Shown one piece after another: positions 7,365-14,651 of a stretch of 64,000 bases of DNA. The stretch's first letter is position 1. Every line of letters starts with the position of its first letter. The DNA comes from Bacteroidota bacterium (GTDB taxonomy: Bacteria; Bacteroidota; Bacteroidia; Bacteroidales; Lentimicrobiaceae). The position numbers and the translations under genes were made by a program. The stretch spans positions 117,186 through 181,185 of the forward strand of contig WSXU01000001.1 in NCBI GenBank assembly GCA_009773455.1. Reading direction: 5' to 3'. The notes beneath the pieces are model-generated. The model saw nothing but the letters and a program-made list of their open reading frames with translations. It did no database searches and was not told where the DNA came from.

Positions 7365-8285
7365 CTAAAACAGCAAGAGCTTCTTTGTATAAATCACCCT
7401 CTTCTGATTCCGAACCACCAGAAAATACAAGCCTTCTGTAAATCTTTCAAGGTTAACTGTTTTCATTTCACCAAAAGGCAACCTGTCTTCCATCACTTTT
7501 TTACCATTCTCATCGTAAATAGACAGTCCGGCATCTGAGCCCATGTTATTCATTTTCAAATGCCGGTTTAACAAAGAGAATGAGACTTCGCCTTCATTCA
7601 ATTGATTTTCAGACATTCCCACTTCCCTCTCAACACGCTTGAGTACTTCCTGAACCCATTGAGCATACATCAGTCCGCTTGGATGAAGCCCGTCTGCAGC
7701 CACCAGTTCGGGCTGAGCCAGGCCTTTGCGTGATATCGGGGTAATGTCAATATAACTGACCTGATATTCTTCGGAGATTATCCGGTTGATCTCATTGAAC
7801 TCATCAATTGCATCACTGATGGCAGGATTTCCATTCCCAAAAGGCGTATAGGCGTAATCGGGGATAGACAATACAAAAACATGTGAAGGTGACCCTCCGG
7901 CCAGAAAAATCGCTTGCTGAAGCAGAGCCTCAAACTCATTCGCATAAGCAGCTTGACTACCACCCTGGAATTGATTGTTAACACCAATCAGTAGTGAAAC
8001 CAGATTGTATCCTGTAAGTGGCAATTGTTCACCAATTGCACTTTTTAAGTTATCTGTCCGCCAGCCGGTTTGCGCAATAATTTTCAGTTCATCAACATTG
8101 TATCCCAGATTCGTCAATCCGTTAATAAACTGAACAGGCCAGCGTTCGGTAATTGCAACGCTCTGCCCGATTGTATAGGAATCGCCCAGGGCAAGAAAAC
8201 GCACAGGTTCTCTCACCTTAATAGTACGGCCGGGGACTGTTAAAGAAGATAATAGCAGGAAAATGAATAAAAACCGCGGTCTCAC
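7365..8285 (-). CDS. SGNH/GDSL hydrolase with C-terminal T9SS sorting domain
   Basis: LGDSYT, GWRT, GVNN and DGLHP blocks; signal peptide; C-terminal GLYFLVV..KKLL. Confidence 0.85.
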   Translation of the reverse strand: MRPRFLFIFLLLSSLTVPGRTIKVREPVRFLALGDSYTIGQSVAITERWPVQFINGLTNLGYNVDELKIIAQTGWRTDNLKSAIGEQLPLTGYNLVSLLIGVNNQFQGGSQAAYANEFEALLQQAIFLAGGSPSHVFVLSIPDYAYTPFGNGNPAISDAIDEFNEINRIISEEYQVSYIDITPISRKGLAQPELVAADGLHPSGLMYAQWVQEVLKRVEREVGMSENQLNEGEVSFSLLNRHLKMNNMGSDAGLSIYDENGKKVMEDRLPFGEMKTVNLERFTEGLYFLVVRNQKRVIYTKKLLLF

Positions 8286-10009
8286 TGCCTGATAATTTTT
8301 CCAGTGACCTGTTTCCCTTCTTTCACCATCCTTACAAGGTAAACGCCCGATCGGAGATTCTCAAGCGACAAACTGAAATCGTTTTTGGTTATCTTTCCTG
8401 ACCAGACAACAGCGCCGGTAACTGAAACGATACTTACATCAGCATCTTCTGAACCGGTGTTTACTAATCTAAGCAAAGAACCATCAGTAAAAATTCCGGT
8501 AACCGGAGTTTCAACAGAGTTTACATCCGTAGAAAGAACCGTGAAACTTCCCTCGGTTGAAAATTCAGAACCTTCATAGGCCTGATCGATCGCCTGTACT
8601 CTGAAATAATAGTCACCAGGGTTAAGCGACCTGAACACCATAAAATCGTTGCTGCCCGTATTGCCGGTACCGGCTGTATATCTGACGCCGGTCTCAATAT
8701 CAGCCTGGGGACTTACCACATCTATGTTGCCACTTTCCGAGCCAACCATTACATTATAACTGATCGCCATCTGTGGAGATTGAAGGTCGGTGACCCGGCT
8801 CCAGCTGATAACAGCATAATCTCCTGAGGCATATGAATACAAATTGCCCGGGACACCCGGCGGGGTGTTCTGCTGAAAAGCGCCGGTTTGTATATCATTC
8901 CGATAAAGAATAGAAACCGGATCGCCCGATAAACCGGTGAGCAGCAGGTCATAATCCCCGTCATTGTCATAATCACCCCAGGCTGATGAAGCCCTTTCAA
9001 CAAAAGGCAATCCTGCCGGAAATTCATCAAAGCTTCCAACGCCGTTGTTGTTGTATAACCTGGTAGAGGCATTCCCGCATCCGGCATTTTCTCCGGCAAG
9101 CATAATGTCGAGGTCTCCATCGTTGTCATAGTCAATCCAGTCGGCAGGCCCCAGGGCAGTACCAACCAGGCCGGCATTTGCAAAACTGAAGGTTTTGTCT
9201 CCATTGTTCCTGTAAACGTAGGAAACCGGAACCAGAGAAACATCTTTTCCGGAGATCAGAATATCGGGATTACCGTCATTGTCGAAATCACCCCAGCTTG
9301 CAGTACCGCCCACAGCGCCTTCAACCGGTACTTCCAGCCTGCTGAAAATCCCGTTTTCATTCAGATAAATAAAAGTTTCGGCAACCGACCCGGCATCTCC
9401 GACCATCAGCAGGTCAGGATCTCCGTCGTTATCACAATCGCCCCAGTCAAGTGAAGGGGTGTTCATTATGGTCAGGCCAGCGGTAACTTCAGCAAATGTG
9501 CCATCACCGTTGTTGTGATAAAGCCTGGTATCCCAGTTTCCAGAAATCACAAGGTCAGGGTAAGCATCGTTATCATAATCCCCCCAGGCAACATCCCCGT
9601 CAGAACCGCCTGCGTTAAATAAATCATCGGTAAGTCCGAATGTTCCATCTCCCAGGTTACGATATAGTCTGGTTGCATTGCCGTTTATATCCCTGCCTGT
9701 CATAACTACATCAATATAACCGTCAAGGTCATAATCGGCAAGTGCGAGGGCACAGTTGTACAGGCCTGAAATCCCGGAGGCAGTATCACTAAAAACCCCC
9801 TGAGCGTTGAGAAATATCTTTCCCAGGGGTTGTGCTGATTCATCAAGTCCAACCATAACCAGGTCGAGATCGTGGTCGTTATCAAAATCGGCGAATGCCA
9901 CCGCACTACGCCCGATGGGCGGAAGTCCTGAAGAAACAGGAACAAAAGGCTGGGCCAGTGAAACTGAAAGTCCCGAAGATAGAAATAGAAACAGTATATA
10001 TGCTTTCAT
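8282..10009 (-). CDS. FG-GAP/VCBS repeat protein with FN3-like and T9SS C-terminal domains
   Basis: Repeated (W/F/L)xD(Y/F)DNDGDxD(L/I) units, YYFRVQAID FN3-like strand, LRSGVYLV..KII end; start 10009 gives a signal peptide (ORF track starts at 10090). Confidence 0.85.
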   Translation of the reverse strand: MKAYILFLFLSSGLSVSLAQPFVPVSSGLPPIGRSAVAFADFDNDHDLDLVMVGLDESAQPLGKIFLNAQGVFSDTASGISGLYNCALALADYDLDGYIDVVMTGRDINGNATRLYRNLGDGTFGLTDDLFNAGGSDGDVAWGDYDNDAYPDLVISGNWDTRLYHNNGDGTFAEVTAGLTIMNTPSLDWGDCDNDGDPDLLMVGDAGSVAETFIYLNENGIFSRLEVPVEGAVGGTASWGDFDNDGNPDILISGKDVSLVPVSYVYRNNGDKTFSFANAGLVGTALGPADWIDYDNDGDLDIMLAGENAGCGNASTRLYNNNGVGSFDEFPAGLPFVERASSAWGDYDNDGDYDLLLTGLSGDPVSILYRNDIQTGAFQQNTPPGVPGNLYSYASGDYAVISWSRVTDLQSPQMAISYNVMVGSESGNIDVVSPQADIETGVRYTAGTGNTGSNDFMVFRSLNPGDYYFRVQAIDQAYEGSEFSTEGSFTVLSTDVNSVETPVTGIFTDGSLLRLVNTGSEDADVSIVSVTGAVVWSGKITKNDFSLSLENLRSGVYLVRMVKEGKQVTGKIIRQ

Positions 10010-10107
10010 AGGAAACCATTGGTTATTGGGATGGTGAAAATACAATAAAACAATGAAACATATGCAGGTTAGGGTATATAAGATTTGCAATTTGCTGCAA
10101 GCTTATG

Positions 10108-10213
10108 GCAGGCAGAGCCTGCCGTCATATTCAGGCTGAGGCAGAGCCTCAGCCAACCCCTGGGTTAAGCCGGGGCTCTGCCCCGGCTTGCTATCATGGC
10201 AGGCTCCGCCTGC
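10108..10213. repeat. Composite REP unit 1 (106 bp, four GC-rich hairpins plus central palindrome)
   Basis: GCAGGC-AGA-GCCTGC, GGCTGAGGC-AGA-GCCTCAGCC, AACCC-CT-GGGTT, AAGCCGGGGC-TCT-GCCCCGGCTT, GCAGGC-TCC-GCCTGC; near-identical to units at 10292 and 11146. Confidence 0.9.
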
Positions 10214-10291
10214 AACTGCATTCCTGAACAAAAACTATATCCTTTCGACTTTGCTACGGAATTCGGGATTTTATATGACGGCAGGCTGCTT

Positions 10292-10396
10292 GCAGGCAGA
10301 GCCTGCCGTCATATTCTGACTGAGGCTGAGCCTCAGCCAACCCGGTGTTAAGCCGGGGCTCTGCCCCGGCTTGTTATCATGGCAGGATGTGCCTGC
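10292..10396. repeat. Composite REP unit 2 (105 bp, more degenerate)
   Basis: Same hairpin order as unit 1 with substitutions; shares the downstream tail AACTG(C/T)ATTCCT(G/A)AA(C/T)AAAAAC with unit 1. Confidence 0.88.
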
Positions 10397-10424
10397 AACT
10401 GTATTCCTAAATAAAAACAATTCT

Positions 10425-10982
10425 TTACGATTTTACTCCAAGATTCAGAATTATTACATCTAACAATGCATCTTTATCAGCATAATTTCGTGCACTTGAA
10501 TAGAGATAATCTTCAGGCTTTTCAACCAACCCGTTTTTTACAGGATTATAGTGGATATAGTTTACTTTTTGTTCGATAAACTTTTGACTGTATATAAGTT
10601 CCGCATGGTTATTATTTGTCCAGAATTGGTATTGTTGTTTAGCTTTATACTTTCCGTGATATTCGAAAATAAGTTTCATCCAATCTCTCCTGCTTTCACT
10701 CGATTTCAATATTTCACTCATAAACTGTTTACATGTATAACTTTTAAAATCACGGATAAATCCACTCAAATCTCCCTGGCCGCTTTGAGCAAGAATGTGT
10801 ATGTGATTCGACATAATCACATAAGCGAATATATTCAGAGATTTGTTTTTCCGGCAATACTCAAGGCTATCGATAACGATGTCGCGGTAGACTTTTCGGG
10901 TGAAGATATCAACCCACCCAACAATCTGGAAGGTAAGGAAATAAGCACCTTCCGTTTCTAAGATTTTGTAACCCGATGACAT
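10425..10982 (-). mobile_element. REP-associated tyrosine transposase (RAYT/TnpA-REP, HUH Y1 superfamily)
   Basis: YFLTF start, YVIMSNHIH (HUH), QFW, YIHYNPV (catalytic Tyr), YSSA; flanked on both sides by palindromic repeats; visibly AT-richer than neighbouring genes. Confidence 0.92.
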
Positions 10983-11145
10983 GATAAAATCAAATTACAA
11001 CATTGGATTCTTTCCTGGATTATTAGCAGAGTATATATTTCTAACGGGTGGTCTATTAATAGGAATAAATAGCAGATATAAAGTAATATAAAGTTACAAA
11101 AAAAATGTTTCGAATTCAAGTTCCTGTGTTCACTGAAAGCATTTC

Positions 11146-11251
11146 GCAGGCAGAGCCTGCCATCATATTCCGGCTGAGGCAGAGCCTCAGCCAACCCCTG
11201 GGTTAAGCCGGGGCTCTGCCCCGGCTTGCTATCATGGCAGGCTCCGCCTGC
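11146..11251. repeat. Composite REP unit 3 (106 bp), upstream of the RAYT
   Basis: Differs from unit 1 at only two positions (GCCATCATA vs GCCGTCATA; TTCCGG vs TTCAGG); same orientation. Confidence 0.9.
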
Positions 11252-11342
11252 GACTGGATTCAATAAATCAATGATGTATGCTTTTTCCTGCAATTAAAAT
11301 ATTCCGCTTTGCTTACCTTTGAAGTAGTCCAAATGATCCTTT

Positions 11343-12500
11343 ATGAGAATTTATGTATCCCTGATCATGATCTGTTTCTTCATGAAACTTACGTCGCCGA
11401 AAGCACAGCCATTCAGCAGTTTTCTGCAGCAGATCAACCTGCTGGAACAGGAAAAAAGACAGGAACAGGTAAACAGATTCCTGGTAGGAAAACCGGATAT
11501 TCCTGTGATTGAATCTGATACTGTTGTGTACTTCCTATACAGCGGAAATGCCATCTCCGTTGCCATTGCCGGTGATGCCACTGCCTGGATACCAACACTC
11601 AGCATGACCCGGATTATCGGCACCAATCTCTGGTATGTCAGCACTTCATATCAAAAAGACGCCAGGCTCGAATACAAAGTGGTGATCAATGATATGGACT
11701 GGAAGCTGGATTCACTTAACCGGCGGATTGTTGCCGGAGGCATGGGCAATAACTCAGAGCTGATCATGCCCGGTTACCAGGCCGGTAAATATAACATCAA
11801 ACGGCCATCCATTCCTTCAGGTTCGGTCTCGGATACCGTAATTCAAAGCAGGGTAATGAAGGAAAACCGCAAAATCCTGATATATCTCCCACCCGGATAT
11901 TCCGGCAGCCACGATCGTTACCCTGTCTGCTATTTCCATGACGGGATTGAGTTTTTCAACCTAACAGCAGCAAAAAATATCCTTGATAATCTGATATCCG
12001 GGAAACGCATACAACCGGTTATCGGGGTATTTATTGAACCTGTTCAACGGGATGAGGAATACTCAGGCTTCAGGCAGAGCGATTACACCCGTTTTGTAAC
12101 AGAAGAGCTTTCATCTTTTATCGATGCGACATACCGTTCCGAAACAAATCCGGAAAGCCGCGCACAGTTCGGCATTTCAAACGGAGGCAATATTTCCCTG
12201 TGGATAGCCGCTTCGCATCCTGAAAATACCGGGAAAGTTGCCGCTTTTTCAAGCAATGTTGAAAAGAGTGTTATGAAAGCAATTAAGAAATCAGAGTGCA
12301 ATAATCAGAAGGTCTACCTTGATCTGGGAGCCTATGACATACCTGCCCTGCTGCCGATGGTAAGGAATCTGAAAGACCTGCTGACGGAAAAGGGGTGCAG
12401 CCTAAGCTATCATGAATACCCTGAAGGGCACAACTGGGCTTTCTGGCAGAAATACCTCCCCGATGCCCTGATATTTTTCTTCCCTTCTGATTCCAGGTGA
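11343..12500 (+). CDS. Secreted esterase (enterochelin-esterase-like alpha/beta hydrolase with N-terminal Ig/CBM48-like domain)
   Basis: ARLEYKVVIN Ig-like strand, IYLPPGY, YFHDG, GISNGG nucleophile elbow, EGHNW; TACCTTTG -7 box at 11314-11321. Confidence 0.85.
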   Translation: MRIYVSLIMICFFMKLTSPKAQPFSSFLQQINLLEQEKRQEQVNRFLVGKPDIPVIESDTVVYFLYSGNAISVAIAGDATAWIPTLSMTRIIGTNLWYVSTSYQKDARLEYKVVINDMDWKLDSLNRRIVAGGMGNNSELIMPGYQAGKYNIKRPSIPSGSVSDTVIQSRVMKENRKILIYLPPGYSGSHDRYPVCYFHDGIEFFNLTAAKNILDNLISGKRIQPVIGVFIEPVQRDEEYSGFRQSDYTRFVTEELSSFIDATYRSETNPESRAQFGISNGGNISLWIAASHPENTGKVAAFSSNVEKSVMKAIKKSECNNQKVYLDLGAYDIPALLPMVRNLKDLLTEKGCSLSYHEYPEGHNWAFWQKYLPDALIFFFPSDSR

Positions 12501-12521
12501 ATACAAAGATGTTTTCATCAG

Positions 12522-12548
12522 AAAAAGGGAGCCGATGACTCCCTTTTC
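12522..12548. terminator. Bidirectional intrinsic terminator
   Basis: AAAAAGGGAG-ccgatga-CTCCCTTTTT between convergent genes. Confidence 0.75.
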
Positions 12549-12554
12549 TCTGCA

Positions 12555-14651
12555 TCATTTCCTCTTTTTAAATTCAGCCAGACCGCTGTCGAGAAACTCC
12601 AGGAACTTATCCACATCAAGGTCATAGGCTTTCGGTGAAACCAGCAGTTCACCCTTTGCATCCAACAGCACATAATAGGGCTGGGCATTGATGTTGTATT
12701 TGCTGATCTGGTAATCGGCATATTTCTTACCGATGGTTTTCTTCACCTTCCCATCATAGGTGGATGTAATCCATTCCGATTCGGGAAGTTCCGTCTTATC
12801 ATCCACATAAAGGGCGACAAGCACAAAATCTTCGCGGAGTTTCTTTAACACGCGTGGATCTGACCATACCCTGGACTCCATTTCCCGGCAATTGACGCAA
12901 CCATGGCCCGTGAAGTCAATAAATACGGGCTTCTGCTGTTTCGCTGCACAGGCCAGTGCCTGTTCATAATCAAAATAGCCTTCCAGACCATGAGGAAGAT
13001 GAAGTATATCACCATATTTGGGCTTATCGCAAAGGGTTGAACCACTGTGCTCAGTACCAGCCCCCCCGCCAGTACCATAGACCTGGATGTTGTCACGTAT
13101 AATTTTATTAAGGTCGAAATCGTGGGTTGCCTGAGGGGGCAGGTAGCCCGACAATGCCTGCAGTGGCGCGCCGAACATACCGGGAATCATATAGGCAACG
13201 AAAGTAAATGTTGCAATGGCCAGACCAAGCCGTGGCACGGCTATGTATTTCAGGTCGCTGTCGTGCGAAAACTTCAGCTTACCCAGCAGGTAAAATCCCA
13301 TCAGGGTAAAGATGACAATCCATAAGGCAAGGTAAATCTCACGATCAAGAATGCCCCAGTGGTAAGTCTGGTCTGCAATGCTGAGGAATTTCAGACCAAG
13401 CGCCAGTTCGATAAATCCCAGCACAACCTTCACTGAATTCAGCCATCCGCCAGATTTTGGCATATTGTTGAGCCAGCGTGGGAAAAAGGCAAATAAGGTG
13501 AACGGCAATGCAAAGGCAAGTGAAAAACCCAGCATCCCAACAATGGGTTCAAGTACTTCACCGCCTGCCGAAGCCACCAGAATGGCACCAACGATGGGAC
13601 CAGTGCAGGAGAATGAAACCAGTACCAGGGTAAAAGCCATAAAGAAGGCACCAATGATGCCTCCCCGGTCGGCCTGAGCATCTGATTTGTTGATCATCCA
13701 ACTGGGCAGTGTAATTTCAAACATGCCCAGGAATGAAGCGGCAAAGAACACGAATATCAGGAAAAACAGCACATTGGGAATCCAGTGTGTACTCAGGAAA
13801 TTCGCAAAATTGGCGCCAAGTGTCACTGCAACAACAGTTCCGATTACTGTATAAATCAGGATGATGGATATACCATAAATAAGTGCCTGTGCTTTCGCTT
13901 TCACTTTATCCTTTTCCTTGAGGAAAAAAGTAACCGTCATTGGAATCATCGGAAATACACAGGGAGTAAGAATAGCAGCCAGTCCGGCAAGAAAAGATAA
14001 GAAAAAGAGCTTCCAGAGCGATGAATTCTCATCCAGCCCGCCATTGCTTACAGGTTTGATCTCCGCCTGCTGCAACGAATCCGAGTGCCCTGCAGTGTCA
14101 GCAACAGCAGTGGATGTATCGGCCGGAGCTGTTTCGCCGGGAGTGGTGACAGGAACCACAGTCGCTCCTGCATCAGGGTTTCCTTTAATGTTGAATTCAA
14201 AATCCACCGTTTCCGGGGCAAGGCACTGCTTATCATCGCAGCACATAAATTCCAGGTAACCGGTAACCTTAAAATCTTTTGCCGAAAGCACACCGATGGT
14301 TTGGGTAAAAACAGCCTTATCGTTGAAGTACTTCAAAATGGCCTGAAACTGATTGTCAAACTCTTCAACGGATTTTGATTCCTTTACCTTACCGATGGTC
14401 TTAAAATCCCTGCTTTTTTCAAAGTTAAAGGAAGTAGCAACAGGGCCATCAGGAGGTGGTGGCACATCCTGCGAATATAAATGCCATGGCCTGTCGATGG
14501 TCGCTGTAAAGATCAGCTGAACCTCGGCCGGACTGATTTGTTTTGTGCTGAATGTCCACTTCACAGGTTTCATCACCTGGGCACCGGTGATCAGGGGTAT
14601 TGCCAGGGCTAAAGCCAGCAGCAATATGACATTTTTCAGTTTCTGGGTCAT
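12555..14651 (-). CDS. dsbD: Thiol:disulfide interchange protein DsbD family
   Basis: N-domain MCCDDKQC, membrane LTPCVFPM and SFSCTGP, thioredoxin DFTGHGCVNC. Confidence 0.9.
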   Translation of the reverse strand: MTQKLKNVILLLALALAIPLITGAQVMKPVKWTFSTKQISPAEVQLIFTATIDRPWHLYSQDVPPPPDGPVATSFNFEKSRDFKTIGKVKESKSVEEFDNQFQAILKYFNDKAVFTQTIGVLSAKDFKVTGYLEFMCCDDKQCLAPETVDFEFNIKGNPDAGATVVPVTTPGETAPADTSTAVADTAGHSDSLQQAEIKPVSNGGLDENSSLWKLFFLSFLAGLAAILTPCVFPMIPMTVTFFLKEKDKVKAKAQALIYGISIILIYTVIGTVVAVTLGANFANFLSTHWIPNVLFFLIFVFFAASFLGMFEITLPSWMINKSDAQADRGGIIGAFFMAFTLVLVSFSCTGPIVGAILVASAGGEVLEPIVGMLGFSLAFALPFTLFAFFPRWLNNMPKSGGWLNSVKVVLGFIELALGLKFLSIADQTYHWGILDREIYLALWIVIFTLMGFYLLGKLKFSHDSDLKYIAVPRLGLAIATFTFVAYMIPGMFGAPLQALSGYLPPQATHDFDLNKIIRDNIQVYGTGGGAGTEHSGSTLCDKPKYGDILHLPHGLEGYFDYEQALACAAKQQKPVFIDFTGHGCVNCREMESRVWSDPRVLKKLREDFVLVALYVDDKTELPESEWITSTYDGKVKKTIGKKYADYQISKYNINAQPYYVLLDAKGELLVSPKAYDLDVDKFLEFLDSGLAEFKKRK

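Follow-up and report, generated by a model that had tools for sequence, protein, structure and literature searches.

A probable REPtron-type locus in Bacteroidota: a single-copy RAYT gene between copies of a quasi-palindromic hairpin repeat devoid of the GTAG foot

We analysed a window of 64,000 nt from the genome of a Lentimicrobium-like member of the Bacteroidales (Bacteroidota), in which a RAYT gene of the HUH-Y1 class is surrounded by copies of a hairpin-rich repeat. The locus is probably of the REPtron/TIRtron type: a single-copy, vertically inherited RAYT lying between copies of its cognate single-stranded DNA (ssDNA) hairpin repeat. It represents a well-preserved example of an enzyme-repeat pairing already described for Bacteroidota, and not a new kind of system.

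Results

The window carries three direct, same-strand (+) copies of a quasi-palindromic unit of about 106 nt, at positions 10108-10213 (U1), 10292-10396 (U2) and 11146-11251 (U3). The RAYT gene is on the minus strand, so that U1 and U2 are located downstream of it and U3 upstream, exactly as the initial annotation had placed them. The covariance model R1 scores the three units at 119, 107.8 and 119.4 bits, respectively, and over the whole unit U1 and U3 are 97% identical, U1 and U2 91%, and U2 and U3 89%. In U1 and U3, four perfect hairpins enclose the centre AACCCCTGGGTT: H1, GCAGGC-AGA-GCCTGC (10108-10122 and 11146-11160); H2, GGCTGAGGC-AGA-GCCTCAGCC (10134-10154 and 11172-11192); H3, AAGCCGGGGC-TCT-GCCCCGGCTT (10167-10189 and 11205-11227); and H4, GCAGGC-TCC-GCCTGC (10199-10213 and 11237-11251), with the central palindrome at 10155-10166 and 11193-11204. 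U2 is a worn copy. Next to H1 (10292-10306) and H3 (10350-10372), it has a TGA loop in H2 (10320-10336), AACCCGGTGTT as its centre, and an H4 (10382-10396) that has degenerated to GCAGG-ATGTG-CCTGC. The outer 22-nt arms of the units are 86-92% complementary, in agreement with the earlier view of the outer pair as inverted copies; the mutual complementarity of H2 and H3 is only 71%. As had also been remarked, GTAG, GTGG, CTAC and CCAC are absent from all three units and their 12-nt flanks, and the units do not show the 5′ GTAG/GTGG at 0-2 nt from the hairpin foot that defines canonical (group 2/3) REPs.

The folding of the units is not due to chance. As ssDNA, their folding energies range from -38 to -51 kcal/mol, with z between -6.4 and -10.3, and none of 200 shuffles does as well. 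The minimum-energy fold is not the four-armed cloverleaf initially proposed, since an outer stem of about 20 bp, pairing the H1 region with the H4 region, closes a junction which bears H2, H3 and a 4-bp central stem.

The region between U1 and U2 (start-to-start spacing of 183-184 nt) contains, at 10216-10278 (+), a decayed duplicate of the stretch following U2. It comprises the counterpart of the 26 nt past the RAYT stop codon and of the ~35 nt with which the RAYT reading frame ends, and its local alignment with 10399-10460 scores 52, for a mean of 20 and a maximum of 42 in shuffles. The stretch 10216-10278 is the remnant of a partial tandem duplication that involved the unit and the RAYT 3′ end. 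Partial duplications of this kind, associating the RAYT 3′ end and the module described below, recur in the window and at three related loci (L049, L066 and L087). An inverted 15-nt fragment, ATATGACGGCAGGCT (H1 3′ arm and spacer), lies at 10273-10287 (+) and abuts U2; it is 100% complementary to 10116-10130 and to 10300-10314.

The gene itself (10425-10982, minus strand) is intact and encodes 185 aa. Its product passes the NCBIfam REP_Tyr_transpos model (NF047646, 113.5 bits for a cutoff of 80) and matches Pfam Y1_Tnp, whereas it fails the NCBIfam IS200 model (NF033573, 17.4 bits for a cutoff of 55). The HUH motif corresponds to H60-I61-H62, the conserved tryptophan to W121 and the catalytic tyrosine to Y142, within YIHYNP. 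The alignment to 4ER8 spans both the HUH and the Y motifs, and 38 orthologues show little or no variation at H60, H62, Y142, N146 and P147. The best Foldseek match of the AF2 model (pLDDT 91.5) is the E. coli TnpAREP (4er8_A; E 4.3e-8, TM 0.63/0.70), followed by the IS608 and ISDra2 TnpA proteins (2vih and 2xo6; E ~1e-4). The model shows an extra helix at residues 99-110, and the protein has about 23 residues more than 4ER8. Family model, motifs and predicted fold all identify the protein as a RAYT/TnpAREP, as had been annotated. The gene is under purifying selection (dN/dS of 0.11 at a dS of 0.40, against the orthologue of the congener G007). The cassette sits between divergently transcribed genes, and the genes beside it carry T9SS sorting tails; together with the labels of related contigs (Bacteroidales, Lentimicrobium), these tails support the Bacteroidota host that had been deduced. 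There is one gene copy of this RAYT clade per genome. The source genome (G000) also contains two paralogous RAYTs, 37-40% identical to this one, each of which bears its own, different flanking hairpins, in line with the rule stated for REPtrons in PMC6006769.

The most suitable description of the unit is a pair of two-hairpin modules of about 53 nt, inverted relative to each other (half-module example, GCAGGCAGAGCCTGCCGTCATATTCAGGCTGAGGCAGAGCCTCAGCCAACCC). Each is composed of CAGGC-ANA-GCCTG, a 4-5-nt spacer, ATA, a variable-stem hairpin with an AGGC-ANA-GCCT apex, and (G/C)AAC. The outer hairpin is sequence-invariant, while in the inner hairpin the lower stem varies and the apex is kept. Because of the symmetry of the modules within the unit, both DNA strands show the same module at their 5′ half. 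The initial annotation had spoken of a tetrameric REPIN-like substrate; the unit is better described as a dimer of the two-hairpin module. The element conserved across relatives is the RAYT-proximal half alone. In these relatives, the start codon is preceded by the inner hairpin at about -85 nt and by the outer one at about -55 nt, and the stop codon is followed by the outer hairpin at +12 to +16 nt and by the inner one at +41 to +46 nt.

The R1 model matches the immediate RAYT flanks at all 31 loci where protein identity is 61% or higher, and at only 1 of the 47 loci below 60% (Fisher p = 6e-21). With the different hairpins of the paralogues, this is the specificity of flanking palindromes for a RAYT lineage that characterizes REPtrons. 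The comparison of repeats at orthologous RAYTs suggested in the initial annotation returned the same module at the 31 loci and supports its proposal that the repeats are cognate to the gene.

Both sides are altered in 6 of 9 H2 pairs and in 5 of 9 H3 pairs. The H2 and H3 alignment cells are paired at 93-96%, compared to 25-49% when the partners are slid, and the covariation score is 0.296 versus 0.125 in shuffles; none of 500 shuffles attains 0.296. These paired-side substitutions and the covariation in H2 and H3 imply that the hairpin structure is selected. As for unpaired positions, ATA and the AAC of GAAC are each conserved at 90% or more over 84 non-redundant sites, and A26-T27-A28 is invariant. 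The tetranucleotides ATAT, ATAG or ATAA, previously pointed out 5′ of the inner hairpins, are indeed present there, ATA being their invariant part. Its conservation makes ATA a candidate guide.

The same FG-GAP/esterase-DsbD neighbourhood surrounds the RAYT gene in G000, G007 and JADJEQ01, and the gene has diverged to about the same extent as its neighbours (91% versus 90% for FG-GAP). At this locus in G011 the RAYT gene is deleted, leaving one unit and a ~70-nt remnant of the gene 3′ end, and G011 keeps units elsewhere in its genome despite this loss. The locus is not syntenic in G021 nor in 30 other loci, and an orthologue-grade match is found in 10 of the 41 genomes of the genus. Single copy, syntenic and under purifying selection, this RAYT behaves as a domesticated-type gene.

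The genome-wide search for the unit proposed in the initial annotation found no further full copy in the 4.8-Mb source genome, where the three full units are all at the RAYT locus, and none at contig ends. It did find about five half-units (C12:173.6 kb, C12:176.0 kb, C49:393.5 kb with two copies, C153:36.1 kb and C34:65.3 kb). Full and half units are also present on other contigs of the congeners G007, G011, G012 and G021, with at least roughly 25 sites on 7 contigs in G021; covariance-model scoring took in 89 of ~1000 first-look candidates per genome. The family is therefore low-copy, its counts being well below classical REP numbers and coming from MAG assemblies, which may under-represent repeats, and in G000 there is little sign of RAYT-driven spread. 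A REP-like abundance of the GGC-AGA-GCC hairpin alone was rejected: G000 has 13 perfect hairpins of this type, 8 of which belong to the three units, and its 3-nt-loop hairpins show no excess of AGA/TCT loops.

Stand-alone full units and half-modules occur without any gene remnant. One such full unit occupies an intergenic site of G011 (C60), and the aligned spacers of G000 (C136) and G007 (C43) are empty; the corresponding spacers of G006 and G013 also have no unit, but are too diverged to align. The junctions of the filled site are ragged and the direction of change is not firmly polarised. No target-site rule could be derived from this comparison of G011:C60 with G000:C136 and G007:C43, because the left junction is ragged and the spacers have diverged too far.

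Units are 89-98% identical within a genome, compared to 85-91% between G000 and G007 and 61-71% between G000 and G021. They thus evolve in concert, being homogenised within genomes, and such homogeneity could stem from gene conversion without any RAYT activity.

We also noticed a hybrid hairpin, GCAGGCAGAGCC|TCCGCC, in G000 (C153:36763), and H3/H4 fusions at the loci L026 and L034. Nicking inside hairpin loops was considered as their source and set aside, since slippage explains them equally well, the shared apex forming direct repeats of 9-12 nt.

Discussion

How did these repeats come to surround the gene? The [inner][outer]-RAYT-[outer][inner] arrangement could be that of an autonomous IS200/IS605-like or 'TIRtron' transposon with the modules as its ends, the 106-nt units then being either end junctions of (once-)tandem copies or gene-less derivatives. 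We consider this unlikely, although several observations go in its direction. In most relatives the inverted modules keep a fixed spacing to the start and stop codons, and the inverted similarity between flanks is significant at 45 of 63 loci. The patchy presence of the gene in the genus, its lack of synteny in G021 and 30 other loci, and the recurring duplications of the RAYT 3′ end with the module would all be expected of such an element, as would the head-to-tail array of L026, whose ~75-nt spacers resemble, by eye, leftover RAYT ends. However, there is one clade copy per genome, at the same chromosomal site in three genomes and with a deletion relic in a fourth, and the RAYT diverges at much the same rate as its FG-GAP neighbour. 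Moreover, the left and right ends of IS200/IS605 elements are not mutual inverted repeats, full units and half-modules also stand alone with no trace of the gene, and the RAYT model is passed where the IS200 model is not.

The hairpins could otherwise serve mainly to regulate the RAYT and its neighbours at the RNA or DNA level, as terminators, mRNA stabilisers or translational occluders, and be copied solely by ordinary duplication, the RAYT taking no part in their spread. The conserved spacing between the outer hairpin and the start (-55) and stop (+12 to +16) codons, and the position of the cassette between divergently transcribed genes, fit this possibility. The covariation would suit an RNA equally well, and IS200 is known to control its expression through hairpins at its ends, as discussed in PMC3733652. 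Nevertheless, none of the hairpins of the units is followed by a T-run, and the presence of the same module on both strands points to a strand-symmetric function at the DNA level. Identity with a known RNA family is rejected, as no Rfam family reaches its gathering score (best, 30.6 bits versus 100); at permissive E-values there are only miRNA-like, sub-threshold matches of at most 31 bits, for gathering scores of 60-330. Copies are also present at a distance from any RAYT, on other contigs and in genomes from which the gene has disappeared, and regulation leaves the association of the module type with the RAYT clade at 31 of 31 loci without explanation. We regard a mainly regulatory role as quite improbable. 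It is harder still to believe that the copies merely reflect local tandem or segmental duplication, beside the gene by coincidence. The restriction of full units to the RAYT locus in G000, and the nature of U1 and its spacer as a partial duplicate of U2 and the RAYT 3′ end, would agree with it, but it is already contradicted by the compensatory substitutions in the module, by the copies on other contigs and by the same module flanking orthologous RAYTs at 31 other, non-syntenic loci.

A REPtron/TIRtron-type locus remains our preferred reading. A match to an already catalogued REP class, which the initial annotation had named as counting against its proposal, does apply in part. Quentin, Siguier, Chandler and Fichant (2018) described the TnpAREP/TnpAY1 subclass 2.6, equivalent to Bertels group 5, which is mostly found in Bacteroidetes and has 'atypical secondary structures' (PMC6006769). 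Its members (e.g. AFM02882.1, AFL82922.1 and AEA44309) are ~179 aa long, with NH[LIV]H and YIH[QN]NP motifs and a helix inserted between alphaC and beta4, and in Bacteroidetes their flanks carry atypical hairpins that have no GT[AG]G (PMC6006769). Table S1 of that paper includes hairpins with 3-nt TCT/TCC loops, among them GCTG-TCGCTTGGC-TCT-GCCGAGTGAC of Flexibacter litoralis, and a 122-nt composite palindrome of Belliella baltica. The F. litoralis hairpin has the same GGC-TCT-GCC apex as our unit. The RAYT studied here has 185 aa, NHIH and YIHYNP (YIHNNP in most orthologues; the residue after YIH is N in 32 of 68 relatives), the extra helix at 99-110, Bacteroidales-labelled relatives and no GT[AG]G. 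Judging from motifs, length, taxon and repeat type, it appears most like subclass 2.6. On the other hand, this clade has W-T in place of the 'WQ' motif listed for 2.6, and the paper gives single hairpins per locus and does not contain the bipartite module, the CAGGC...GCCTG-N4-5-ATA arrangement, the shared apex or the four-hairpin doublet (PMC6006769). Belliella relatives of our RAYT (51-52% identity) have flanking hairpins unlike the published B. baltica one: this palindrome had no match in the B. marina and B. pelovolcani loci, whose flanks share the two-hairpin layout but with a different pair of hairpins.

The TIRtrons of Di Nocera, De Gregorio and Rocco (2013) associate RAYT-like genes (TIRYTs) with non-GTAG terminal inverted repeats at a fixed distance, and our RAYT is likewise flanked, at a fixed distance, by non-GTAG palindromic repeats. 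As far as the accessible part of that paper goes, TIRtron repeats are moderately abundant, some being self-complementary or 'double palindromic', and occur as singles, dimers and clusters, and its named examples are from Acidobacteria, Stenotrophomonas and Pseudomonas, with neither Bacteroidales nor GGC-AGA-GCC among them (PMC3733652). Compared to what is described there, the TIRs of our locus are extended by distal halves into full quasi-palindromic units, which stand as direct repeats. With the E. coli REPtron (TnpAREP/YafM, 4ER8; REP/BIME) and the Pseudomonas REPIN-RAYT systems, the locus shares a single-copy HUH-Y1 gene of the same fold, cognate flanking palindromes that also occur as inverted doublets, housekeeping-like synteny, purifying selection and repeats that outlive gene loss (PMC8266576, PMC5581495). 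It differs from them by the lack of the 5′ GTAG/GTGG foot, by two hairpins per module rather than one, by a family of tens of copies at most and not hundreds, and by its location, which is between divergent genes and not at the 3′ ends of genes. The inverted halves, the predicted ~20-bp outer stem and the lone full unit of G011:C60 recall REPINs, the 71% complementarity of H2 and H3 and the half-modules found alone having to be set beside this likeness. Finally, the locus has in common with IS200/IS605 elements (IS608, ISDra2) the HUH-Y1 core and subterminal ssDNA hairpins with nearby guide or cleavage motifs. However, its flanks are inverted or direct copies of one module instead of distinct ends, and its gene is single-copy, syntenic and without tnpB; with the NF033573 score below cutoff, we rejected an IS200/IS605 identity.

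By analogy with the TnpAREP proteins of E. coli, Stenotrophomonas and Marinomonas and with IS608, a mechanism can be proposed in which the 106-nt unit would act as a REPIN-like doublet of two inverted modules. The RAYT would bind the hairpins in ssDNA, for example at the replication fork, cleave near them using Y142 and the H60/H62 metal site, and rejoin the strands. Such cleavage and rejoining may maintain and homogenise the modules, and occasionally copy and disperse them. The invariant outer hairpin and the apex are likely recognition determinants, and the invariant ATA and GAAC are candidates for a guide or cleavage role. It is possible, though we hold it only tentatively, that this constitutes a novel Y1 substrate, a bipartite ssDNA module recognized through its outer hairpin and shared apex, with ATA or GAAC taking over what GTAG/C|T does in proteobacterial REPs. 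If so, the duplications of the RAYT 3′ end and module in the window, L049, L066 and L087 would be footprints of strand transfer.

In conclusion, the locus leaves the overall picture of RAYT-repeat systems unchanged. The biochemistry of RAYTs and REPs rests on the proteobacterial groups 2 and 3, the only ones assayed (PMC8266576), in which the GTAG foot is essential, and the Bacteroidota subclass has so far been known only by its 'atypical secondary structures'. Together with its 31 relatives, the locus cleanly defines such an atypical substrate by an invariant outer hairpin, ATA, a shared apex and co-varying stems, and this alignable definition makes a cleavage-mapping experiment easy to design. 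In addition, the gene is intact in G000 and G007 and deleted with a unit left behind in G011, and the repeats are expanded in G021, which offers a natural series on the dependence of the repeats on their RAYT.

The RAYT gene and its flanking units

The RAYT (TnpAREP, an HUH-Y1 enzyme) is encoded on the minus strand of the window (G000:C49:117186-181185, in a 4.8-Mb assembly of 159 contigs) by an ORF of 185 aa (10425-10982). Its protein passes the NCBIfam equivalog REP_Tyr_transpos, with 113.5 bits for a cutoff of 80, and fails the IS200 model, with 17 bits for a cutoff of 55. The alignment with the E. coli TnpAREP (4ER8) spans the HUH and Tyr motifs, and H60, H62, W121, H144, N146 and P147 are invariant in 38 orthologues, Y142 being nearly so. 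The AlphaFold model (pLDDT 91.5), which shows an extra helix (99-110) between alphaC and beta4, has 4er8_A as its best PDB match (E 4e-8, TM 0.63/0.70), with the IS608 and ISDra2 TnpA ranking behind. Compared with its 91% identical orthologue in the congener G007, the gene has a dN/dS of 0.11 at a dS of 0.40. The Bacteroidota host given in the initial annotation holds, in agreement with the labels of related contigs (Bacteroidales and Lentimicrobium MAGs) and with the Por_Secre_tail domains of neighbouring genes.

As noticed at the outset, three repeat units of about 106 nt surround the RAYT in the same orientation, all on the plus strand: U1 (10108-10213), U2 (10292-10396), which is a worn copy, and U3 (11146-11251). 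U1 and U3 are 97% identical, and U2 is 89-91% identical to the others. The four perfect hairpins around a central AACCCCTGGGTT that had been described are exact in U1 and U3; the absence of a GTAG-type tetranucleotide also holds, as none of GTAG, GTGG, CTAC and CCAC is found within or beside any of the three units.

Folded as ssDNA, the units reach -38 to -51 kcal/mol (z = -6.4 to -10.3), a value equalled by none of 200 shuffles. In the predicted minimum-energy fold, an outer stem of about 20 bp, formed between the regions of hairpins 1 and 4, closes a junction bearing hairpins 2 and 3; four independent arms are not the minimum-energy shape. Among 17 units from 10 genomes, two-sided changes affect 6 of the 9 pairs of hairpin 2 and 5 of the 9 pairs of hairpin 3; 93-96% of their cells are paired, versus 25-49% with slid partners, and the observed covariation was reached by 0 of 500 shuffles. 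The secondary structure of hairpins 2 and 3 is under selection. Hairpins 1 and 4 are sequence-invariant in the same set, and covariation is therefore uninformative on local hairpins versus the long outer stem.

A two-hairpin module cognate to the RAYT lineage

The unit is cognate to this RAYT lineage. When relatives were scanned with one genome per species (80 loci), R1, the covariance model of the unit, matched the immediate gene flanks in 31/31 loci where protein identity is 61% or higher, versus 1/47 loci below 60% (Fisher p = 6e-21). Across related loci, the inner hairpin lies at about -85 and the outer one at about -55 before the start codon, and after the stop codon the outer hairpin lies at +12 to +16 and the inner one at +41 to +46; the pairs on the two gene sides thus form two-hairpin modules in inverted orientation. 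A second, inverted module completes each gene side into a four-hairpin unit in the window, G007, G021 and the loci L026, L031, L034 and L046. The module consensus (84 non-redundant sites) is CAGGC-AnA-GCCTG, N5, ATA, N5-6, a stem with an AGGC-AnA-GCCT apex, and GAAC, with CAGGC, GCCTG, ATA and AAC each at least 90% conserved. Flank similarity is significant in inverted orientation in 45/63 loci and in direct orientation in 37/63.

In more distant relatives (Belliella, for instance, at 51%), the layout of two hairpins is retained with hairpins of unrelated sequence. Each end of L076 and L079 (Belliella marina and B. pelovolcani; RAYTs at 51-52% identity) carries two different hairpins, at 1190-1460 and 2060-2350: AAGCGTAGAT-TGC-ATCTACGCTT next to the gene and GGTGTAGTT-(T/G)(A/C)AA-AACTACACC farther out. 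G000, the genome of the window, also encodes two RAYT paralogues (37-40% identity), each flanked by a different set of hairpins that is confined to its own locus: the one at C68:121169-121717 is flanked by the repeat TTGCCGCACGAGTCC..., and upstream of the one at C141:76616-77146 are 6 or more copies of TTCGCGCGCATC-N9-GATGCGTGCGAA.

Copy number and evolution of the units

An exhaustive nhmmer scan of G000, a search proposed initially, returned half-length copies elsewhere and no full unit beyond U1-U3. Of the half-length matches, two are on C12 (173.6 kb and 176.0 kb), two in tandem on C49 (393.5 kb) and one on C153 (36.1 kb). The pattern CAGGC-N3-5-GCCTG-N4-6-ATA has 13 matches in this genome, 11 of them family members and none at contig ends, and the GGC-AGA-GCC hairpin, sought across G000, is no genome-wide feature. 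The family is therefore low-copy in G000. Among 40 relatives, with both strands counted and only 89 first-look candidates scored per genome, R1 has at least 17 matches in G007, at least 13 in G011, at least 11 in G012 and at least 49 in G021 (roughly 25 sites on seven contigs); five more distant genomes give weak matches.

Two half-module copies on C153 (36127-36200 and 36751-36800), about 620 bp apart, share a 12-nt 5' flank, ACTTTCCGGAAA. The second has lost the 30 nt between two GGCAGAGCC apexes, leaving a hybrid hairpin, GCAGGCAGAGCC|TCCGCC, which the fusions of hairpins 3 and 4 in L026 and L034 resemble. These hybrid or fused hairpins probably arose by slippage between shared apex repeats.

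The cassette has the same FG-GAP/esterase-DsbD neighbourhood in G000, G007 and JADJEQ01; in the window, its neighbours are an FG-GAP/T9SS-tail gene (8285-10009), which runs leftward, and an esterase gene (11343-12497), which runs rightward. The esterase gene is present in G000, G007 and G011 and absent at the syntenic JADJEQ01 locus (L023), where a DsbD-like gene directly adjoins the cassette. In the congener G011, the locus orthologous to window 9800-12650 (L014, C22:102755-105860) holds one unit and a remnant of about 70 nt of the RAYT 3' end between the FG-GAP and esterase genes. The RAYT gene has been deleted there, yet other units persist in G011. One occupies an intergenic site whose alignable counterparts in G000 and G007 are empty; the G006 and G013 spacers, too diverged for alignment, also lack a unit. 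No target rule was obtained from the filled and empty junctions (G011 versus G000 and G007), which are too ragged.

The units undergo concerted evolution: they are more alike within genomes (89-98%) than between them (85-91% for G000/G007, 61-71% for G000/G021). The last 25-30 RAYT codons and the downstream module are repeated in tandem, with a period of about 143-184 nt, in the window, where a decayed copy of the RAYT 3' end makes up the U1-U2 spacer (10216-10278), and at independent loci (L049 2124-2210; L066 2118-2192 and 2261-2335; L087 2205-2291). An intergenic spacer of the G006 locus L104 (C5, about 1260-1335) carries a different short tandem motif, GGGCGACTTTAGCGACGGGGCGA, twice.

Relation to known systems

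The mostly Bacteroidetes TnpAY1 subclass 2.6 (Quentin et al. 2018, listed there as Bertels group 5) comprises proteins of about 179 aa with NH[LIV]H and YIH[QN]NP motifs and an insertion between alphaC and beta4, whose genes have "atypical secondary structures" on their flanks, devoid of GT[AG]G and with further copies in the genome (PMC6006769). Its Table S1 lists hairpins with 3-nt TCT/TCC loops, a 122-nt composite palindrome for Belliella baltica, and a Flexibacter litoralis hairpin whose GGC-TCT-GCC apex is that of the window units. In Di Nocera et al. (2013; PMC3733652), TIRtrons are RAYT-like genes with TIRs at a fixed distance, some "double palindromic", and their repeats form families of moderate abundance only, as singles, dimers and clusters. 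Judged by these published descriptions, the window locus fits subclass 2.6 and the TIRtrons on every compared feature except the "WQ" motif listed for subclass 2.6, which is W-T in the window RAYT.

In conclusion, the initial observation is confirmed, and there is support for the substance of its reading as a REPtron, a RAYT with cognate flanking REPs. A REPIN-like dimer, built from a bipartite module of two hairpins, is a better description of the unit than "tetrameric cloverleaf", and the "new guide" is so far just the invariant ATA, as a candidate. The locus is a well-resolved example of an already described RAYT-repeat pairing. The RAYT enzymes assayed belong to groups 2 and 3 only, both GTAG-dependent (PMC8266576), and the main value of the locus is a precise, testable substrate definition for a RAYT subclass without biochemistry to date.
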